DNA of 64,000 nucleotides. It comes from Escherichia phage N2. Each line of letters starts with the position of its first letter. The first letter of the stretch is position 1. The notes below the pieces were generated by a model, which had not been told where the DNA came from, made no database searches, and was given only the letters and a program-made list of their open reading frames with translations. Both the position numbers and the translations under genes were made by a program. Positions 1,887-38,348 of the stretch are shown in pieces. The stretch lies in the sequence record ON645936.1; one strand, written 5' to 3'.

Positions 1887-1894
1887 TATAAATA
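1887..1894 (+). promoter_or_regulatory. Late promoter TATAAATA (gene 24)
   Basis: Exact TATAAATA 28 nt upstream of gp24 ATG. Confidence 0.7.
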
Positions 1895-1921
1895 AATCAT
1901 ATAAACCAAAAGGAAAGCGCA

Positions 1922-3205
1922 ATGGCTAAAATCAACGAACTTCTGCGCGAGTCAACCACAACGAATAGCAACTCAATCGGTCGCCCAAATCTCGTTGCTT
2001 TGACTCGCGCTACCACTAAATTAATATATTCCGACATTGTAGCAACACAAAGAACTAATCAACCTGTTGCTGCTTTTTATGGTATCAAATACCTTAACCC
2101 AGACAATGAATTTACATTTAAAACTGGTGCTACTTACGCTGGCGAAGCTGGGTACGTAGACCGAGAACAAATCACAGAATTAACAGAAGAGTCTAAATTA
2201 ACTCTCAATAAAGGCGATTTATTCAAATATAATAATATCGTTTATAAAGTATTAGAAGATACACCATTTGCTGATATTGAAGAAAGCGATTTAGAATTAG
2301 CTCTTCAGATTGCAATTGTTCTTTTAAAGGTTCGTCTATTTTCTGATGCAGCATCAACAAGCAAATTTGAAAGCTCTGATAGCGAAATTGCGGATGCTAG
2401 ATTCCAGATTAATAAATGGCAAACCGCAGTTAAATCTCGTAAACTTAAAACTGGCATTACAGTTGAATTAGCACAAGATTTAGAAGCAAATGGATTCGAT
2501 GCTCCTAATTTCTTGGAAGATTTGCTTGCAACTGAAATGGCGGATGAAATCAATAAAGATATTCTGCAATCTTTGATTACAGTATCAAAACGCTATAAAG
2601 TTACAGGAATTACTGATACTGGATTCATTGATTTGAGTTATGCATCTGCACCTGAAGCTGGTCGTTCATTATACCGAATGGTGTGTGAAATGGTTTCGCA
2701 TATCCAAAAAGAATCAACTTATACTGCAACGTTCTGTGTTGCTTCAGCTCGTGCCGCTGCGATTCTTGCTGCATCAGGTTGGTTAAAACATAAACCAGAA
2801 GATGATAAATATCTTTCACAAAATGCCTATGGGTTCTTAGCTAATGGTTTACCGCTTTATTGCGATACTAACAGCCCATTAGATTATGTAATCGTTGGCG
2901 TAGTAGAAAATATTGGTGAAAAAGAAATTGTCGGATCAATTTTCTATGCTCCGTATACAGAAGGTCTTGACTTAGATGACCCTGAACATGTAGGTGCATT
3001 TAAAGTTGTAGTTGATCCAGAAAGCTTACAACCATCTATCGGTTTATTGGTTAGATATGCTTTATCTGCAAATCCTTACACTGTAGCAAAAGATGAAAAA
3101 GAAGCAAGAATAATTGATGGTGGAGACATGGATAAAATGGCGGGTCGTTCAGATTTGTCTGTTTTATTAGGTGTTAAATTACCAAAAATTATCGTTGATG
3201 AATAA
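1922..3205 (+). CDS. 24: Head vertex protein gp24 (gp23 paralog)
   Basis: 427 aa, T4 gp24 length and position; TATAAATA late promoter 28 nt upstream; shared motifs with gp23 (ELAQDL, FYAPY). Confidence 0.92.
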   Translation: MAKINELLRESTTTNSNSIGRPNLVALTRATTKLIYSDIVATQRTNQPVAAFYGIKYLNPDNEFTFKTGATYAGEAGYVDREQITELTEESKLTLNKGDLFKYNNIVYKVLEDTPFADIEESDLELALQIAIVLLKVRLFSDAASTSKFESSDSEIADARFQINKWQTAVKSRKLKTGITVELAQDLEANGFDAPNFLEDLLATEMADEINKDILQSLITVSKRYKVTGITDTGFIDLSYASAPEAGRSLYRMVCEMVSHIQKESTYTATFCVASARAAAILAASGWLKHKPEDDKYLSQNAYGFLANGLPLYCDTNSPLDYVIVGVVENIGEKEIVGSIFYAPYTEGLDLDDPEHVGAFKVVVDPESLQPSIGLLVRYALSANPYTVAKDEKEARIIDGGDMDKMAGRSDLSVLLGVKLPKIIVDE

Positions 3206-3235: not shown

Positions 3236-4239
3236 TAACTTACCAATTCAATCCAAGCCGGACGAAGTACATCTTGTACCATTTTAACTAATTCCTTTTT
3301 AATCAAAGAAGGATTATCCGCTTGAGTTAGAGTAATACCTTCACGAGAAGTTTCTTCCAAAATATCTTGAACAGTTAGCCCCATCACCTTTCCAAAATCT
3401 TTTGGACCAATTTCGCCAATTTTAGAAATAACATTATTTACTCGGTTCAGTGTAACGTAGCAAGCTAAAATTCCCAGCAATTTATTATCAGCTTCTGACA
3501 ACTCAACTTTAGCTTTAATAGGCTTATCAGACTTTTTCTTTTCGCTAAATTTAGAGTTCTTGCATTTAATAGCGACACGATTGCCATTAGGCATCCAAGA
3601 AGGATAACAAGGTTTCAATACATATCCTTCAGCAGTAAATACTTCGCCTTTTGCTTCGGCATTCCAAACGCATTTATTTGCATCAACTAATCCAGCATGG
3701 TCTACTGTAAAATTATAATCCTGGACGACAGAATCTAAATCATTTGGCAATTTAATAAGTTCTTCAAATTTACCACGACCCAAAAGTGGAGCCATTTTAA
3801 ATTTGAATGTATTACAGAATGATTCCATCATATAATCATCGACATAAGTCACATCACCACTTTCTGTAGTAACAATAATGTCAAATACATAAAAATCTTT
3901 ATCACCATAATCGACATTCTTCTGAATGCCAGGTCCAGCGAATTCGCCGAAGACTTGATAAGATACAACTGCCGAAGTTTCCATAATATCTTGTACTGCT
4001 TTAATGGAATCAGCGTAATTCTTTAGAATAATTTCATACCCAAAGAAATCTTCAGCAGGAAGAATCGGTCCAGTACGTTTAGCACAAGTTGCTTTATCGC
4101 GTTCAATAATCAGTGAGAAATTTGTGCCATGAATCTTTTCACGAGCTACCCATTCGCCGCCAGTCAATCCTAAACTGTAAAGTTTTTCAATGAACTTAGA
4201 ATTGTAATGATTTTCAAGACTGCTATACTTTTTAAACAT
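3235..4239 (-). CDS. rnlB: RNA ligase 2 (Rnl2)
   Basis: 334 aa; [16 protein letters not shown]... and ligase motif KIHGTN (lysine nucleotidyltransferase motif I) as in T4 Rnl2. Confidence 0.92.
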
Positions 4240-32509: not shown

Positions 32510-33688
32510 TTAAAAATATTTTTTAAAACTCATCATAACTTTATCATCAACATCATTATCAATCTGTGCTACAAGGTAAGATGACAGTTCTACTTCTTGT
32601 GGTGCAGATTGAACATTATCAGAATTAAGGTATTCACGAATCCAAGGATATGGATGTTTAACCGGAGCATCGGTAATTGGACATGGAAGACCACACTGTT
32701 TCATACGAGATACAGTTAAGTAATCAATAAAGCTCCACATGCTATTTGTATTTAATCCAGGAACATCGCCATCTTTAAATAAATGAACTGCCCAATCTTT
32801 TTCTTGGCGGTTAACTTCCATGAAAATATCAACTGCTTCTTGTTCACACTCTTGAGCAATTTTAACCCATTCATCACCATCAGTACCGGATTGAAGTTGA
32901 CGAATAATATATTGAGTGCCTTTAAGGTGAAGCTGCTCATCACGTGCAATGAACTTCATAATCTTGGCATTACCTTCCATGATTTCCATGTTCTTATGGA
33001 AGTTAAAGGTACATGCAAAAGATACATAAAAACGAATAGCTTCTAAGGCATTAATAACGTGCAAACAGAGGTAAAGAGATTTCATTAGTGCTCGTTTAGC
33101 TTCGGCTTCTTGTTTAATAGCTCGATTTAAACGAAAAACAGCATCAGGAGATTCTTTAGCTAGTTCTGTAAATTCTTTAGCATTTTCCCATTCACGGGTT
33201 TTAGTCAGAACATCATCATAATAGCGACCGATAGATTCAGCACGTTTCATAATAGCTTTATCTAGTACAATCTCATCAAATACCTTCGATGGATCAGTAT
33301 AAAGATTTCGCATGATATGAGTATATGAACGACTGTGAATAGTTTCACTAAAAGTCCATGTAGCAACCCATGTATCAAGGCTTGGGTCTGAAATTAATGA
33401 CATAAGTACAGCAGACGGCGCACGACCTTGAATACTATCAAGTAATGATTGATACTTCAGATTATTAGTAAAAATATTTTGTTGATACTGAGGAAGCTTA
33501 TTAAACTGTGCAGCATCCATCATCAAGTTTACTTCTTCCGGACGCCAGAAAAACGAGAGCGAACGTTCAATAAGTTCTTCAAATACTCGATGCCGTTGAA
33601 TATCATAACGCGCAATACCAAGACCTGAACCAAAAAACATAGGTTCTTTTAAAACATCGACCTGTTTAGTATTAAAAACTGTACTCAT
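32510..33688 (-). CDS. nrdB: Ribonucleotide reductase beta subunit NrdB (uninterrupted)
   Basis: 392-aa contiguous ORF with class Ia R2 diiron ligand regions; no intron gap; hairpin terminator after stop. Confidence 0.94.
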   Translation of the reverse strand: MSTVFNTKQVDVLKEPMFFGSGLGIARYDIQRHRVFEELIERSLSFFWRPEEVNLMMDAAQFNKLPQYQQNIFTNNLKYQSLLDSIQGRAPSAVLMSLISDPSLDTWVATWTFSETIHSRSYTHIMRNLYTDPSKVFDEIVLDKAIMKRAESIGRYYDDVLTKTREWENAKEFTELAKESPDAVFRLNRAIKQEAEAKRALMKSLYLCLHVINALEAIRFYVSFACTFNFHKNMEIMEGNAKIMKFIARDEQLHLKGTQYIIRQLQSGTDGDEWVKIAQECEQEAVDIFMEVNRQEKDWAVHLFKDGDVPGLNTNSMWSFIDYLTVSRMKQCGLPCPITDAPVKHPYPWIREYLNSDNVQSAPQEVELSSYLVAQIDNDVDDKVMMSFKKYF

Positions 33689-35280
33689 TATTTTGTCCTG
33701 TAAACTAAATTTCCACAGTCCCAGATTCTTCTAAGACCATTTGCATAACAATTTTCTACTTCAGTTATTGTATCATCATAATTTTTAAGCTTGTTTTTAA
33801 GCTTATGTTTCATATAGCTTGAGCGGTGAAATACCTCTCCTTTATCGACGTACCAATAACATGGCTCAGAGATATGACTAAATTCCATGACAGAGTCATA
33901 AACATTTGATAATGTACTGCACCATCTTCGATTGCCATAAGATAGACAATTAATTCCTTTTAATAATTTTGAGGCTCCTCCTACAACACAAACCCCTAAT
34001 TTTGAACACATCCTTAAAAGTTCATCACCTGAGCTATATCTAGATTTACCGATAGAAATAATTTGAACTAACTCATTATTGTAATAAAGTCCTTTATACG
34101 TATGAGCTCCTGAGCAAAATCCTTGAAGATGATTCTTATTAATAAATTCTTTTGCCTCATCCTTATTAACAAACCGTGCTTTGCATTTTCGGGCTGGTAT
34201 TCTTTCTGATAATCCTAATTTATGCTTTATAATGGATTTCCAGATCTCTCTTTTTGTATCATCAATCCATTCATTTTCGAAGATGTGAAGTAATTGAATT
34301 CCTTGTGCTTCACACATCTCTGTCTTCATCAAATGATAAGTTTCTTTAATTTTATCTGTTTCCTTTGACCCGCTAGAATGCCAATAAATTCCATCGTATT
34401 CTATAGCCAATTTTTTCTCAGGAATGTAAATATCTAATTCATACGGAGGAATAATTTTTCTAGTTTCTACGCAATCAAATCCTAGATCTAAAATGAATTG
34501 CTCTATAGAACTTTGAGTATAATGAACGTCAATTAGTCCTTTGGATGAAAGAGCTCTATAAGCCGTCATCCGAGAACAATTTGCTAATTGTTGTAGTTCT
34601 TCTATAGAAATTTTGTAATTGATTTTATCTAGTATATCATGATTAATATGACCGTTATTTTTAATAGATTTTCCTATAGATGAATATAACGATGCCTTAT
34701 ATTCTTCAGTCCAATTTAATTTAGTCTTCTTAGATTTTTCGCGAGATTTTCTAGAATGCAGAATATCAACTGATTTACCGTTTTCTATAACTTTTCTCGC
34801 TTCTTTCACACTTTCTAATTGTGAATTATGCGTTACCCCATATCGTTCAATTAAAGTTTTTCTATTTTTATTTCTTGAAATTTTTTGATGAGTTGTTCCA
34901 TATTTTTCTAAAGAATTTTTGTGTTGAAGTTCAGACAAATATTTTTTATATTTTTCTTTTCCGCCAAAATTTGTATCACGGCTTTGAATTCTCTTATCCG
35001 CGAAAAATATCCCTGCGCAGGATTTACTACATGTTGCTGGAAATACACGTTTCTTTGCTGTTTTCAGAGAAATGAAATTTCCACAAACTGCACATTTTAG
35101 ATCGTTAATGTCAATGCCTTCCATAATTTGGAACACATTGAGCTTAAAATCTATTCCATCAGTTAGAAGAGCTTTATCTTCTTCTGTTAGTCTAGATTTA
35201 AGTTTTTCTTCTCCAAATGGAAGAAACTTTCCGTTTTTGTATATATTATCAAACATAGCGTTATTCTTAGTTAACCACAT
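33688..35280 (-). CDS. Multidomain nuclease-like protein at the mobE locus (Zn-finger, YGxTH repeats, HTH-like, Vsr/DUF559-like PD-(D/E)xK motif, unknown C-terminal domain)
   Basis: 530-aa ORF; CAVCGN...CSKSC; EKYGTTHQK/ERYGVTHNS repeats; PYELDIYIPEKKLAIEYDGIYWHS nuclease-like motif; TAATG-coupled to nrdB. Confidence 0.6.
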   Translation of the reverse strand: MWLTKNNAMFDNIYKNGKFLPFGEEKLKSRLTEEDKALLTDGIDFKLNVFQIMEGIDINDLKCAVCGNFISLKTAKKRVFPATCSKSCAGIFFADKRIQSRDTNFGGKEKYKKYLSELQHKNSLEKYGTTHQKISRNKNRKTLIERYGVTHNSQLESVKEARKVIENGKSVDILHSRKSREKSKKTKLNWTEEYKASLYSSIGKSIKNNGHINHDILDKINYKISIEELQQLANCSRMTAYRALSSKGLIDVHYTQSSIEQFILDLGFDCVETRKIIPPYELDIYIPEKKLAIEYDGIYWHSSGSKETDKIKETYHLMKTEMCEAQGIQLLHIFENEWIDDTKREIWKSIIKHKLGLSERIPARKCKARFVNKDEAKEFINKNHLQGFCSGAHTYKGLYYNNELVQIISIGKSRYSSGDELLRMCSKLGVCVVGGASKLLKGINCLSYGNRRWCSTLSNVYDSVMEFSHISEPCYWYVDKGEVFHRSSYMKHKLKNKLKNYDDTITEVENCYANGLRRIWDCGNLVYRTK

Positions 35281-35296
35281 CCTTGTGGTAATTATA

Positions 35297-37561
35297 TCAT
35301 AATTTACAGGATGAACAATCTTCAGCTTTTGGAGTTTCTATTTCGTAATCATCAGTACCGGAACCGTCGCGGGTATTATGATAATAGAAATTTTTTCCGC
35401 CAAAATACCAAAAATACAAAAGGTCATCAATCATTATTGACATTGGAACCTTTCCTTTTGGAAAAATCTGCGGGTCATAATATGTATTCGCTGAAGCTGA
35501 TTGACATACCCATTTCAACATAATAGCTACTTGCGTAAGATAAGGTTTATTACCTTTCTTAGCTAATTTCCACGTATAATCATAGAGGTCTATGTTATGC
35601 TCAATATTGGGCACGACTTGATTAAAGGAACCCTCTTTTGATTCTTTAACAGAGACTGGTCCACGTGGAGGCTCGATACCGTTTGTACTGTTAGAAACTT
35701 GGGAAGATGACTCACATGGCATAAGTGCTGATAATGTGCTATTACGGATGCCAAAGAGCTTAAGGTCTTCCCGCAGCGACGACCAGTCACAAACGTATTT
35801 TGGAGCTGCGATTTGGTCAATCTTTTTATTGTACCAGTCGATAGGTAATTCGCCTCGAGACCAACGAGTGTCTGAATAATATTCGCAAGGTCCTTTTTCT
35901 TTGGCGAGCTTAATGGATGCTTTAATGAGTCCATACTGTAATCTCTCAAATAGTTCATGTGTTAAATCGTTAGCATCTTCATAAGAAGCAAAGTTACTTG
36001 CCAGCCAAGCTGCATAGTTAGTAACACCTACACCGAGGTTACGACGCTTTTTAGCTTTTTCTGCTTCAGGAACTGGATATCCTTGGTAATCCAAAAGATT
36101 ATCAAGAGCACGAACTTGAACTTCTGCCAATTCATTAATTTTATCTTGGTCTTGCCAATCGAAGTTATCTAATACAAATGCGCTAAGGGTACACAATCCA
36201 ATTTCAGCATCAGGACTATTCACATCATTTGTTGGAATAGCAATTTCACAGCACAAGTTACTCTGACGAATAGGTGCCTTTTCACGAATAAACGGAGTAT
36301 AGTTATTCGTATTATCAATGAACTGCACATAAATCCTTGCTGTTCCTGAACGTTCAGTCATGAGCAATTCAAATAGTTCACGGGCTTTAATACGCTTTTT
36401 GCGAATATTAGGGTCTTTTTCTGCGGCTTCATACAATTCACGGAAACGGTCTTGGTCTTTAAAATAAGAATAATAAAGCTCGCCACCCATTTCGTGTGGA
36501 CTGAACAAAGTAATGTAGTCGTTCTTTCCAAAACGTTCCATCATCAAATCATTCAGTTGAACGCCATAATCCATATGACGGATACGGTTTTCTTCTACGC
36601 CTTTGTTATTTTTCAAAACGAGAAGATTTTCAACTTCCAAATGCCAAATAGGATAATAAGCAGTAGCAGCGCCGCCACGAATTCCGCCTTGTGAACATGA
36701 TTTAACAGCAGTCTGAAAATGTTTCCAAAAAGGAATAACGCCAGTATGACGCACTTCACCTGTGCCAATCTTAGAACCTTCGGCACGAATCATACCAACG
36801 TTAATACCAATTCCAGCGCGTTTGGAGATATATTCAACAATTGAAGCAGAAGCCTTATTGATAGACTTCAGCGAATCACCTGCTTCAATAACAACGCATG
36901 AACTAAACTGTCGAGTTGGAGTACGACAACCAGCCATAATAGGAGTTGGCAATGAAATCTGTCGAGTAGATACTGCTTCATAAAAACGGATAACGTGTTT
37001 TAATCTATCAACAGGTTCATCTTGATGCAATGCCATTCCAATAGTCATAAATGCAAACTGTGGAGTTTCATAAATTTGACCAGTGGTTTTATCTTTAACG
37101 AGATATTTTTCTTTTAATTGCATCGCCCCGGAATAAGTAAATTCCATATCCCGCTCGTGCTTAATTTTTGATTCTAAAAATGTAATTTCTTCTGCTGAAT
37201 ATTTTGACAATAATTCAGGGTCATATTTACCTTCATTTACACAGTAAGAAATATGGTCAATAAATGAACGGGGCTCATACTGTCCGTACACGTGTTTACG
37301 AAGAGCAAACATTAAACAGCGTGCAGCTACGTATTGATAATCAGGCTCTTCAACTGAAATAGAATTCGCAGCAGCCTTAATTACAATGGTTTGAATGTCA
37401 TCAGTGGTCATTCCATCACGGAGATATGATTTAATATTTTCATATAATTCATAAGGATCTACTGATGTTCCTTCAGCTGCCCAAGATAAAACTTTAATAA
37501 TTTTTTGTGGGTCAAAGCTCTGAGAAACACCACTACTTTTGATAACATTAATTAATTGCAT
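35297..37561 (-). CDS. nrdA: Ribonucleotide reductase alpha subunit NrdA
   Basis: Track ORF trimmed to MQLINVIKSSG... (755 aa) with GAGGA RBS; ATP-cone plus class I RNR catalytic core. Confidence 0.94.
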   Translation of the reverse strand: MQLINVIKSSGVSQSFDPQKIIKVLSWAAEGTSVDPYELYENIKSYLRDGMTTDDIQTIVIKAAANSISVEEPDYQYVAARCLMFALRKHVYGQYEPRSFIDHISYCVNEGKYDPELLSKYSAEEITFLESKIKHERDMEFTYSGAMQLKEKYLVKDKTTGQIYETPQFAFMTIGMALHQDEPVDRLKHVIRFYEAVSTRQISLPTPIMAGCRTPTRQFSSCVVIEAGDSLKSINKASASIVEYISKRAGIGINVGMIRAEGSKIGTGEVRHTGVIPFWKHFQTAVKSCSQGGIRGGAATAYYPIWHLEVENLLVLKNNKGVEENRIRHMDYGVQLNDLMMERFGKNDYITLFSPHEMGGELYYSYFKDQDRFRELYEAAEKDPNIRKKRIKARELFELLMTERSGTARIYVQFIDNTNNYTPFIREKAPIRQSNLCCEIAIPTNDVNSPDAEIGLCTLSAFVLDNFDWQDQDKINELAEVQVRALDNLLDYQGYPVPEAEKAKKRRNLGVGVTNYAAWLASNFASYEDANDLTHELFERLQYGLIKASIKLAKEKGPCEYYSDTRWSRGELPIDWYNKKIDQIAAPKYVCDWSSLREDLKLFGIRNSTLSALMPCESSSQVSNSTNGIEPPRGPVSVKESKEGSFNQVVPNIEHNIDLYDYTWKLAKKGNKPYLTQVAIMLKWVCQSASANTYYDPQIFPKGKVPMSIMIDDLLYFWYFGGKNFYYHNTRDGSGTDDYEIETPKAEDCSSCKL

Positions 37562-37586
37562 AAGTCCTCTGTAGTAAGTTACCCCA

Positions 37587-37594
37587 TATAAATA
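37587..37594 (+). promoter_or_regulatory. Late promoter TATAAATA driving the free-standing GIY-YIG endonuclease gene
   Basis: Exact TATAAATA 23 nt upstream of ATG, AGGAG RBS between; lies in the divergent gap next to nrdA start. Confidence 0.65.
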
Positions 37595-37616
37595 TAATTT
37601 TATATAGGAGAATATA

Positions 37617-38348
37617 ATGAAATCTGGAATATATGCTATTATAAACACTAAAACTAATAAGCACTATATAGGAAGTGCAATTAATTTTGAAGAACGATGG
37701 AAACGACACTTTAAAGATTTAGATAATGGAAATCATCATTCAATAAAGCTGCAGCGTTCTTATAATAAGCATGGTAAAGATGCTTTCGTATGTAAAATCA
37801 TAGAAGAACTTCCATACGAAAAATCTATCATTATTGAACGTGAAAATTATTGGATGCATGAATATGACTCAAAGGAAAATGGGTATAATATAGCAGACGC
37901 ATCGTTTGGGGATACCTTATCTCATCACCCAAGAAAGCAAGAAATCCTTAATAAAATTTCAAATGCAATTAAAAATAATAATTCAAAATTATCACCAGAA
38001 GAACTTAAGCAAAAACATGGTAGACCTAGAGACATCAAAGGTAAAACTATAGAAGAACACTATGGGTTAGATCGTGCTATAGAAATAAGCAAAAAGTTCC
38101 AAGAAAGAAACGCTGCACTTAATATGAAAGGCATCAATAATCCATATTACGGACAGACGCATACCAATGAAGTTAGAAAACGAATTTCTGACTCACAGAG
38201 AGGTAAAAAGAAACCCCATCTAAGAGTAAGTATAGATGGGGTAGAATATCCAACAATAGCAGAAGCTGTGCGTCAAACCGGAATAAGCAGAAAACTTATA
38301 TCTAAAAGATGCGCTCTAGATTGCTGGGAATCATATTTATACTGCTAA
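37617..38348 (+). CDS. Free-standing GIY-YIG homing endonuclease, I-TevI-like
   Basis: 243 aa; [10 protein letters not shown]...YIGSA...ERWKRHF...SIKLQRS...IIERENYW closely parallels I-TevI catalytic domain; NUMOD3-like [14 protein letters not shown]; C-terminal HTH-like tail. Confidence 0.85.

Follow-up and report, generated by a model that had tools for sequence, protein, structure and literature searches.

What fills the gap between nrdA and nrdB in Escherichia phage N2, and what does the last third of its product do? The locus belongs to sequence record ON645936.1, of which we analysed a stretch of 64,000 nucleotides (the window). Between nrdA upstream (35297..37561, minus strand; limits set by comparison with annotated relatives) and nrdB downstream (32510..33688, minus strand; intronless, 392 amino acids), the listing of open reading frames (ORFs) gives an ORF of 530 codons at 33688..35280 on the minus strand, encoding 530 amino acids. 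A first-pass annotation of this DNA had pointed to a 530-amino-acid ORF in the gap, to a TAATG junction joining it to nrdB, and to a possible tie with the Hef protein of phage U5. The ORF is present as described, its stop codon overlaps the nrdB start codon by one base, and its product is 99.4% identical to U5 Hef, which is encoded at the identical locus. We conclude, with a probability of roughly 0.9, that the ORF is hef, a free-standing homing endonuclease gene at its usual nrdA-nrdB site. The C-terminal third of the protein, left unplaced by the first-pass annotation, looks like a GNAT-fold domain related to the Mom protein of phage Mu, judging from the predicted structure and the alignments. 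This placement and a corrected start codon are the new results reported here.

Identity, nuclease domain and start of Hef

The match to U5 Hef (AY262133, "hef: Hef, homing endonuclease") was obtained by tblastn against GenBank phage records and extends over all 530 amino acids; the two sequences differ by three amino acids, and by seven nucleotides in 1593. Because of this identity the earlier suspicion was right and the gene is not new: both the gene and its nuclease family have been published (Sandegren, Nord & Sjoberg 2005, NAR 33:6203, PMID 16257983; Taylor et al. 2011, PMC3239194). According to a review, the Hef of U5 cleaves nrdB (PMC2988022), and Hef-type proteins have been assigned to the Vsr-like EDxHD family of homing endonucleases (Taylor et al. 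2011, PMC3239194). The window protein is matched along its entire length by PHROG 3339, "homing endonuclease" (E = 3e-151); the name "HNH endonuclease" attached to PHROG 559 is a label only. Chance is excluded as the origin of an ORF with 530 codons in DNA of about 32% G+C and 2675 database homologs at E ≤ 1e-5. The gene has no paralog within the window. When the protein was compared with the PADLOC defence models, the sole match was to the "homing endonuclease" model, and no defence system was found. Hef reportedly cleaves site-specifically near its own gene, in DNA with or without hef.

The nuclease domain (residues approximately 254-354; 34219..34521, minus strand) is of the Vsr/DUF559 type and has the Vsr-type fold of the EDxHD family. 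We built an AlphaFold 2 (AF2) model of the window protein on 120 homologs, which is confident throughout (mean predicted local distance difference test score, pLDDT, 95), and counted residue conservation in 120 homologs of 34-60% identity. The candidate catalytic residues are D283, E294, D296 and H301. Two of them, D283 and H301, are conserved in 120/120 homologs and align to the metal-binding Asp (D196 of I-Bth0305I, D51 of Vsr) and the general-base His (H213 of I-Bth0305I, H69 of Vsr), respectively; H316 and K319 are likewise invariant. For the column of I-Bth0305I D222 and Vsr D97, where the alignment is gappy, the candidates are D309 (Asp in 70/120) and E313. The first-pass annotation had described a multidomain endonuclease with a Vsr/DUF559-like core and neither a GIY-YIG nor an HNH motif. 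The identity with U5 Hef supports this description, and a Pfam search of the protein at E ≤ 1 yields neither domain. Its reading of residues 279-302 (PYELDIYIPEKKLAIEYDGIYWHS) as a PD-(D/E)xK motif survives in part: the motif is indeed Vsr-like, but the canonical (D/E)xK is replaced by E294-Y-D296 followed by H301, a Vsr-type variant without the catalytic Lys.

The gene is probably shorter than the ORF as mechanically listed. Because the start in its relatives corresponds to M9, the product likely begins at this residue (35256), which would give a coding sequence (CDS) of 33688..35256 on the minus strand and a protein of 522 amino acids. The position of M9 corresponds to an MF(D/E)NI start in homologs at 50-75% identity and in the annotation of the hef-carrying phage LH2. 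In Yersinia phage phiR1-RT and Acinetobacter phage Acj9, AGGAGG or GGAG precedes the MF(D/E)NI start. The first ATG in this ORF, at 35280, falls within the 3' arm of a hairpin of 6 bp, ACCACA-AGGA-TGTGGT (35274..35289, minus strand), immediately 3' of the nrdA stop. The CDS in the U5 record starts a further 42 nucleotides upstream, at an ATG provided by the nrdA polymorphism GATGAT. Since nrdA reads GAAGAT there in the window, a start of the U5 type is unavailable. We advise annotating the gene as hef, Hef/EDxHD-family homing endonuclease, with its start at 35256.

Hairpins occur just past the nrdA stop in four loci, with unrelated stems: those of the window, phiR1-RT, Acj9 (L006, approximately 3476..3489; L007, approximately 3466..3489) and phage JE01, which has no homing endonuclease gene at this site (L003, approximately 1917..1934). 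As far as sequence comparison can indicate, the hairpin may represent an RNA element that is conserved between the cistrons of the nrdA-nrdB operon.

The Mom-like C-terminal domain

Residues 356-530 (33691..34215, minus strand) form a GNAT-fold domain whose best structural match among GNATs is Mu Mom (PDB 8BV8), so that among GNAT folds it lies closest to Mom. Profile-profile alignment of the Hef family with the Mom family (hhalign) gives a probability of 90% and E = 1.6e-6 over 147 columns, and a hidden Markov model of the Mom family that we built matches 39 of 121 Hef-family sequences at E < 0.01. Two homologs score above the cut-off of the Pfam Mom model (PF25680; 27.1 bits), P0061 with 30.1 bits and P0065 with 33.6 bits; the window protein itself does not match it. 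A profile made from the family alignment did not reach Mom in the PDB sequence set. Direct profile search having missed Mom, the link needed both fold comparison and profile-profile alignment. NCBIfam has no model for either Hef or Mom.

The alignment with Mom can be followed residue by residue. Positions H384, E420, R423, S437, N450, R452 and Y461 are among those conserved in the Hef domain, which also has a basic insertion at residues 485-498, HRSSYMKHKLKNKL. Mom H58 corresponds to H384 (118/120 homologs), E107 to E420 (119/120), R111 to R423 (119/120), R151 to R452 (120/120) and Y159 to Y461 (118/120), and S124 probably to S437 (120/120). The last of these pairs lies where the automatic alignment is ambiguous; S437, like S124 in Mom, stands where helix alpha-3 begins, and this helix is about 12 residues shorter in Hef. 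Two positions have changed. Mom D149 is replaced by N450 (Asn in 94 and Asp in 26 of the 120), and Y59 by L385 (Leu in 115/120). Residues essential to Mom are R111, S124 and R151; H58, Y59 and Y159 are important, and mutation of D149 or Y59 impairs the protein (PMC13219725). Hef therefore keeps most of the functional Mom residues, though not all of them. The reaction catalysed by Mom is the transfer of glycine from charged tRNA onto the N6 of adenine in DNA (2023 preprint; Nat Commun 2026, PMC13219725). An experimentally validated homing endonuclease, and a very large family with it, thus carries a domain whose structure is closest to that of Mom and in which residues aligned with essential ones of Mom are retained.

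How widespread is this arrangement? When the C-terminal domain alone was searched against 1.84 billion cluster representatives, 13,104 matches were obtained at E ≤ 1e-3; among the best 150 of these the domain is almost always C-terminal, in proteins of 450-680 amino acids. The part that stays constant, in 120/120 top homologs, corresponds to Hef residues approximately 256-527, that is, the nuclease together with the Mom-like domain. The region N-terminal to it varies among homologs, in which DUF7487, DUF723, DUF4379 zinc finger and CapR modules are swapped. Because the core is constant while the N-terminal modules are exchanged, the core looks like the working module and the N-terminus like the specificity module. 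It is unlikely that the Mom-like domain sets target specificity, since it belongs to the constant core with the nuclease across the whole family. In full-text searches of a literature library we found no paper that joins Mom, GNAT and homing endonucleases, or that ties Hef-like proteins to Mom. The sole trace of the link is a GenBank product name, "putative nuclease/acetyltransferase protein," given to two Acinetobacter phage homologs.

What might the domain do? It could be an inert descendant of a GNAT enzyme that serves as a structural partner, for nuclease dimerisation or as a DNA clamp, in which case Hef would have the single activity of a homing endonuclease. We hold this view tentatively and give it somewhat less than an even chance. 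Dimerisation is required for the double-strand break made by I-Bth0305I (PMC3239194), and Mom is itself dimeric, its monomeric W48A mutant being inactive (PMC13219725). The exchange of D149 for Asn and of Y59 for Leu, the shortened helix alpha-3, and the confidence of the AF2 model along the whole chain are in keeping with this view. However, such a role does not readily explain why the residues aligned with the catalytic and pocket residues of Mom are nearly invariant in homologs of only 34-60% identity, and I-Bth0305I dimerises and cuts without any domain of this kind.

The same near-invariance (R423, R452, Y461, H384 and S437) is what makes a second view attractive, namely that Hef is a bifunctional, single-chain element resembling a restriction-modification system. 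The Mom-like domain would then covalently modify adenine in DNA, with an aminoacyl-tRNA or an acyl-CoA as donor, in the manner of Mom; the modification would protect or mark the resident genome, and the nuclease would cut the unmodified DNA of a co-infecting phage or of the host. Homing is compatible with such a scheme. The choice of Mu Mom as the best structural match and the 90% hhalign probability point the same way, as does the conservation of the domain, which is at least as strong as that of the nuclease. Jumbo-phage fusions of a restriction endonuclease with Mom have been interpreted in these terms by Iyer et al. (2021), who did not include Hef (PMC7824862). On the other hand, Asn450 (with Asp in only 26/120) and Leu385 depart from Mom, helix alpha-3 is shortened where the alignment around S124 is ambiguous, the window protein falls below the Pfam Mom model, and PADLOC sees in it nothing other than a homing endonuclease. 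Hef reportedly also cuts the DNA of its own phage, and not just hef-less DNA, which speaks against self-protection. On balance we regard this second view as unlikely for Hef. We give the same rather low credence to its extension to the entire Hef-type family (more than 13,000 sequence clusters), in which the invariant domain would be an active nucleic-acid-modifying transferase that marks or protects adenines of the element's own target. If this were true, each Hef-type selfish gene would amount to a restriction-modification-like element on a single chain, and phages would use DNA hypermodification of the Mom type far more widely than now thought. Whether a homing endonuclease also modifies DNA bears on how free-standing endonucleases spare their own genome.

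Insertion, distribution and proposed mode of action of hef

The boundaries of the insertion can be read from a comparison (blastn) with JE01, a Tequatrovirus phage. Homology to JE01 ends 7 nucleotides after the nrdA stop and restarts 6 nucleotides ahead of the nrdB start; the inserted segment of about 1.6 kb (33695..35289, minus strand) takes the place of about 38 nucleotides of the 51-nucleotide nrdA-nrdB spacer. The inserted DNA is poorer in G+C than its flanks, with 0.27-0.34 in hef compared with about 0.40 for nrdA. At the DNA level, hef of the window is 99.56% identical to that of U5 and 99.87% identical to that of LH2, while identity is 93-96% in the neighbouring segments of nrdA and nrdB. 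Within Tequatrovirus this amounts to a divergence of 0.1-0.4% for hef and of 4-7% for the flanking genes, a difference that fits recent homing or spread.

The distribution of the gene was examined in a phage collection, where the family has 1041 copies in 420 records. Copies that are at least 99% identical occur in 15 records besides U5, all from T4-like phages (mostly Tequatrovirus) of Escherichia, Shigella and Salmonella, and the locus is unchanged in every record checked. Matches to the DNA around the locus occur in about 990 related phage records, of which only 16 have hef, so that the gene is a rare and patchy occupant of this slot. Orthologs are also found in the nrdA-nrdB gap of phiR1-RT and Acj9 (L006, 3501..5060, and L007, 3501..5102, against 33688..35256 in the window). 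In phiR1-RT the identities are 65% for Hef, 76% for NrdA and 74% for NrdB; in Acj9 they are 49%, 57% and 53%, respectively. Since Hef has diverged in parallel with NrdA and NrdB across genera, we conclude that it has long been associated with this site and that purifying selection acts on the protein.

The beginning of nrdB carries marks that go with hef. Its first 300 nucleotides or so (33389..33688, minus strand) have diverged from phages without a homing endonuclease gene and are a candidate zone for both the target and co-conversion: in 60-nucleotide windows, the identity to JE01 is 70-97% over this part and 95-100% beyond it. At nucleotides 21-30 of nrdB, the window, LH2 and U5 read TAAACAGGTC, whereas JE01 and T4 read AAA(C/T)CCAGTT, and correspondingly residues K8Q9 are common to the hef-carrying phages, with N8P9 in JE01 and T4. 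A further cluster of hef-linked substitutions is found at about nucleotides 100-135. These substitutions may be either changes that make the target site immune or markers that were co-converted. In U5, LH2 and most other hef-carrying relatives, nrdB is split by a group I intron with an I-TevIII remnant. As the window has hef and an intronless nrdB, hef and the nrdB intron are not strictly co-inherited.

The N-terminal part of the protein contains the modules by which the target might be recognised. A zinc ribbon resembling FCS and YacG fingers, C63-x2-C66...C84-S-K-S-C88 (residues 63-88; 35017..35094, minus strand), is matched weakly by the profiles of YacG and of FCS zinc fingers (E approximately 0.6), and its four Cys (pattern C-x2-C...C-S-x2-C) are kept in 113-114 of the 120 homologs. 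Two tandem 21-residue helical repeats, LQHKNSLEKYGTTHQKISRNK and NRKTLIERYGVTHNSQLESVK (residues 118-159; 34804..34929, minus strand), each contain (K/R)YGxTH; YGTTH at 127-131 and YGVTH at 147-151 are spaced by exactly 20 residues in the two adjoining units. The repeats lie under a weak Pfam match to DUF7487 and are probably a DNA-binding module. A helix-turn-helix-like (HTH-like) segment follows at residues 224-248 (34537..34611, minus strand). The first-pass annotation had listed the Cys cluster, the two YGxTH repeats, the HTH-like segment and the nuclease motif, and each is where it should be. Its comparison of the repeats with NUMOD3 finds no support in Pfam: the N-terminal 240 amino acids do not match PF07460 at E ≤ 10, while the neighbouring GIY-YIG protein, as a positive control, does so at E = 2e-6.

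Taken together, the following course of events can be proposed. The hef gene would probably be co-transcribed with the nrd genes. The N-terminal array of zinc ribbon, two helical repeats and HTH would bind, in phages that lack hef, a long target within or close to the 5' part of nrdB, and the metal-dependent Vsr-type domain (D283, E294, H301) would cut it; by analogy with I-Bth0305I, the cut might be a double-strand break made by a dimer. Recombinational repair with the hef-carrying genome as template would then copy hef and its flanking markers into the cut genome.

Several points weigh against this picture of an active homing endonuclease. The published endonuclease activity belongs to the U5 protein, at 99.4% identity, and not to the N2 copy. 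The first letter of EDxHD, E170 in I-Bth0305I, is Gln256 here; this column has Glu in 106/120 homologs, and Gln in the window protein and 11 relatives. Neither a promoter of its own nor a hairpin sequestering the ribosome-binding site, as found in other T4 homing endonuclease genes, stands out for hef: promoter, terminator and ribosome-binding-site structure are at background level (fold z-score 0.32), and TATAAATA does not occur on the minus strand in 33000-38333. Across genera Hef diverges only slightly faster than NrdA and NrdB and stays intact, where a purely selfish gene would be expected to decay. Finally, homing leaves the constant attachment of a Mom-like domain with conserved pocket residues unexplained.

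The junction with nrdB bears on the last alternative. The hef stop TAA and the nrdB start codon have one base in common (...AAAATAATGAGT..., ...ACAAAATAATGAGT...) in the TAATG overlap at 33686..33690 (minus strand), and an AGGA within the 3' end of hef, 8 nucleotides upstream of the nrdB start, takes the place of the native nrdB leader present in JE01 (in the nrdA-nrdB spacer, L003 approximately 1890..1940). It is very improbable that hef is a domesticated or decaying remnant, no longer mobile and kept only for this ribosome-binding site and for translational coupling of the essential nrdB gene: the overlap, the AGGA, the want of a promoter of its own and the Gln at the E170-equivalent position would agree with such a fate, but the ORF is intact with all other catalytic residues conserved, activity has been reported for the almost identical U5 protein, hef is far more alike among phages than its flanks, as recent transfer would have it, and its occurrence in 16 of about 990 related records is of the patchiness typical of a mobile gene.

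On the other side of nrdA, the td-nrdA gap contains another homing endonuclease gene (37617..38348, plus strand), with Pfam matches to GIY-YIG (7e-15), to NUMOD3 (2e-6) and to the I-TevI DNA-binding domain. An exact T4 late-promoter consensus, TATAAATA, is located at 37587..37594 (plus strand), 30 nucleotides upstream of its ATG. The same gap holds nrdA.1 and nrdA.2 in T4 and an opposite-strand homing endonuclease gene in phiR1-RT. The mechanically listed nrdA ORF begins at a GTG that lies 29 codons ahead of the start annotated in relatives (which gives 754 amino acids, 2265 nucleotides). The extension (37562..37648, minus strand) overlaps the start of the opposite-strand GIY-YIG gene and is probably untranslated.

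Comparison with known systems

The Hef of U5 is effectively the same gene as that of the window, placed between nrdA and nrdB with a TAATG junction onto nrdB; the U5 locus differs in that its nrdB carries a group I intron, whereas nrdB of the window is intronless. T4 offers a different solution at the same place. The first-pass annotation had put both mobE and the small nrdA.x ORFs of T4 in the nrdA-nrdB gap. This is correct for mobE, which fills the gap together with nrdB.1, but nrdA.1 and nrdA.2 are located between td and nrdA. Like hef, mobE occupies the slot straight after nrdA and takes part in a TAATG overlap, which in T4 joins the nrdA stop to the start of mobE (L005 5417), and the two proteins resemble each other in target gene, the nicks made by MobE mapping to the 5' region of nrdB. 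MobE is nevertheless an unrelated HNH protein of 141 amino acids, without a Vsr or a GNAT domain.

For the combination of nuclease and Mom-like domain, a parallel is offered by the jumbo-phage fusions described by Iyer, Anantharaman, Krishnan, Burroughs & Aravind (2021, PMC7824862), which join a restriction-endonuclease-fold domain to a Mom-family GNAT. They differ in having been interpreted as restriction-modification-like conflict systems, in a paper that is silent on Hef and homing endonucleases (PMC7824862). Mom of phage Mu shares with the Hef domain the GNAT fold and an insertion between the last strands. However, Mom is a stand-alone protein of 241 amino acids, from a temperate phage and under the control of Com, while the Hef domain is fused behind a nuclease. 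For the nuclease, the counterpart is I-Bth0305I (Taylor et al. 2011, PDB 3R3P), which has the same fold, with D283, D296 and H301 of Hef equivalent to its D196, N208 and H213, and a similarly modular N-terminal DNA-binding region with an HTH. I-Bth0305I is intron-encoded, 266 amino acids long and ends with its nuclease domain, whereas Hef is free-standing and carries beyond the nuclease an extra Mom-like domain of 175 amino acids.

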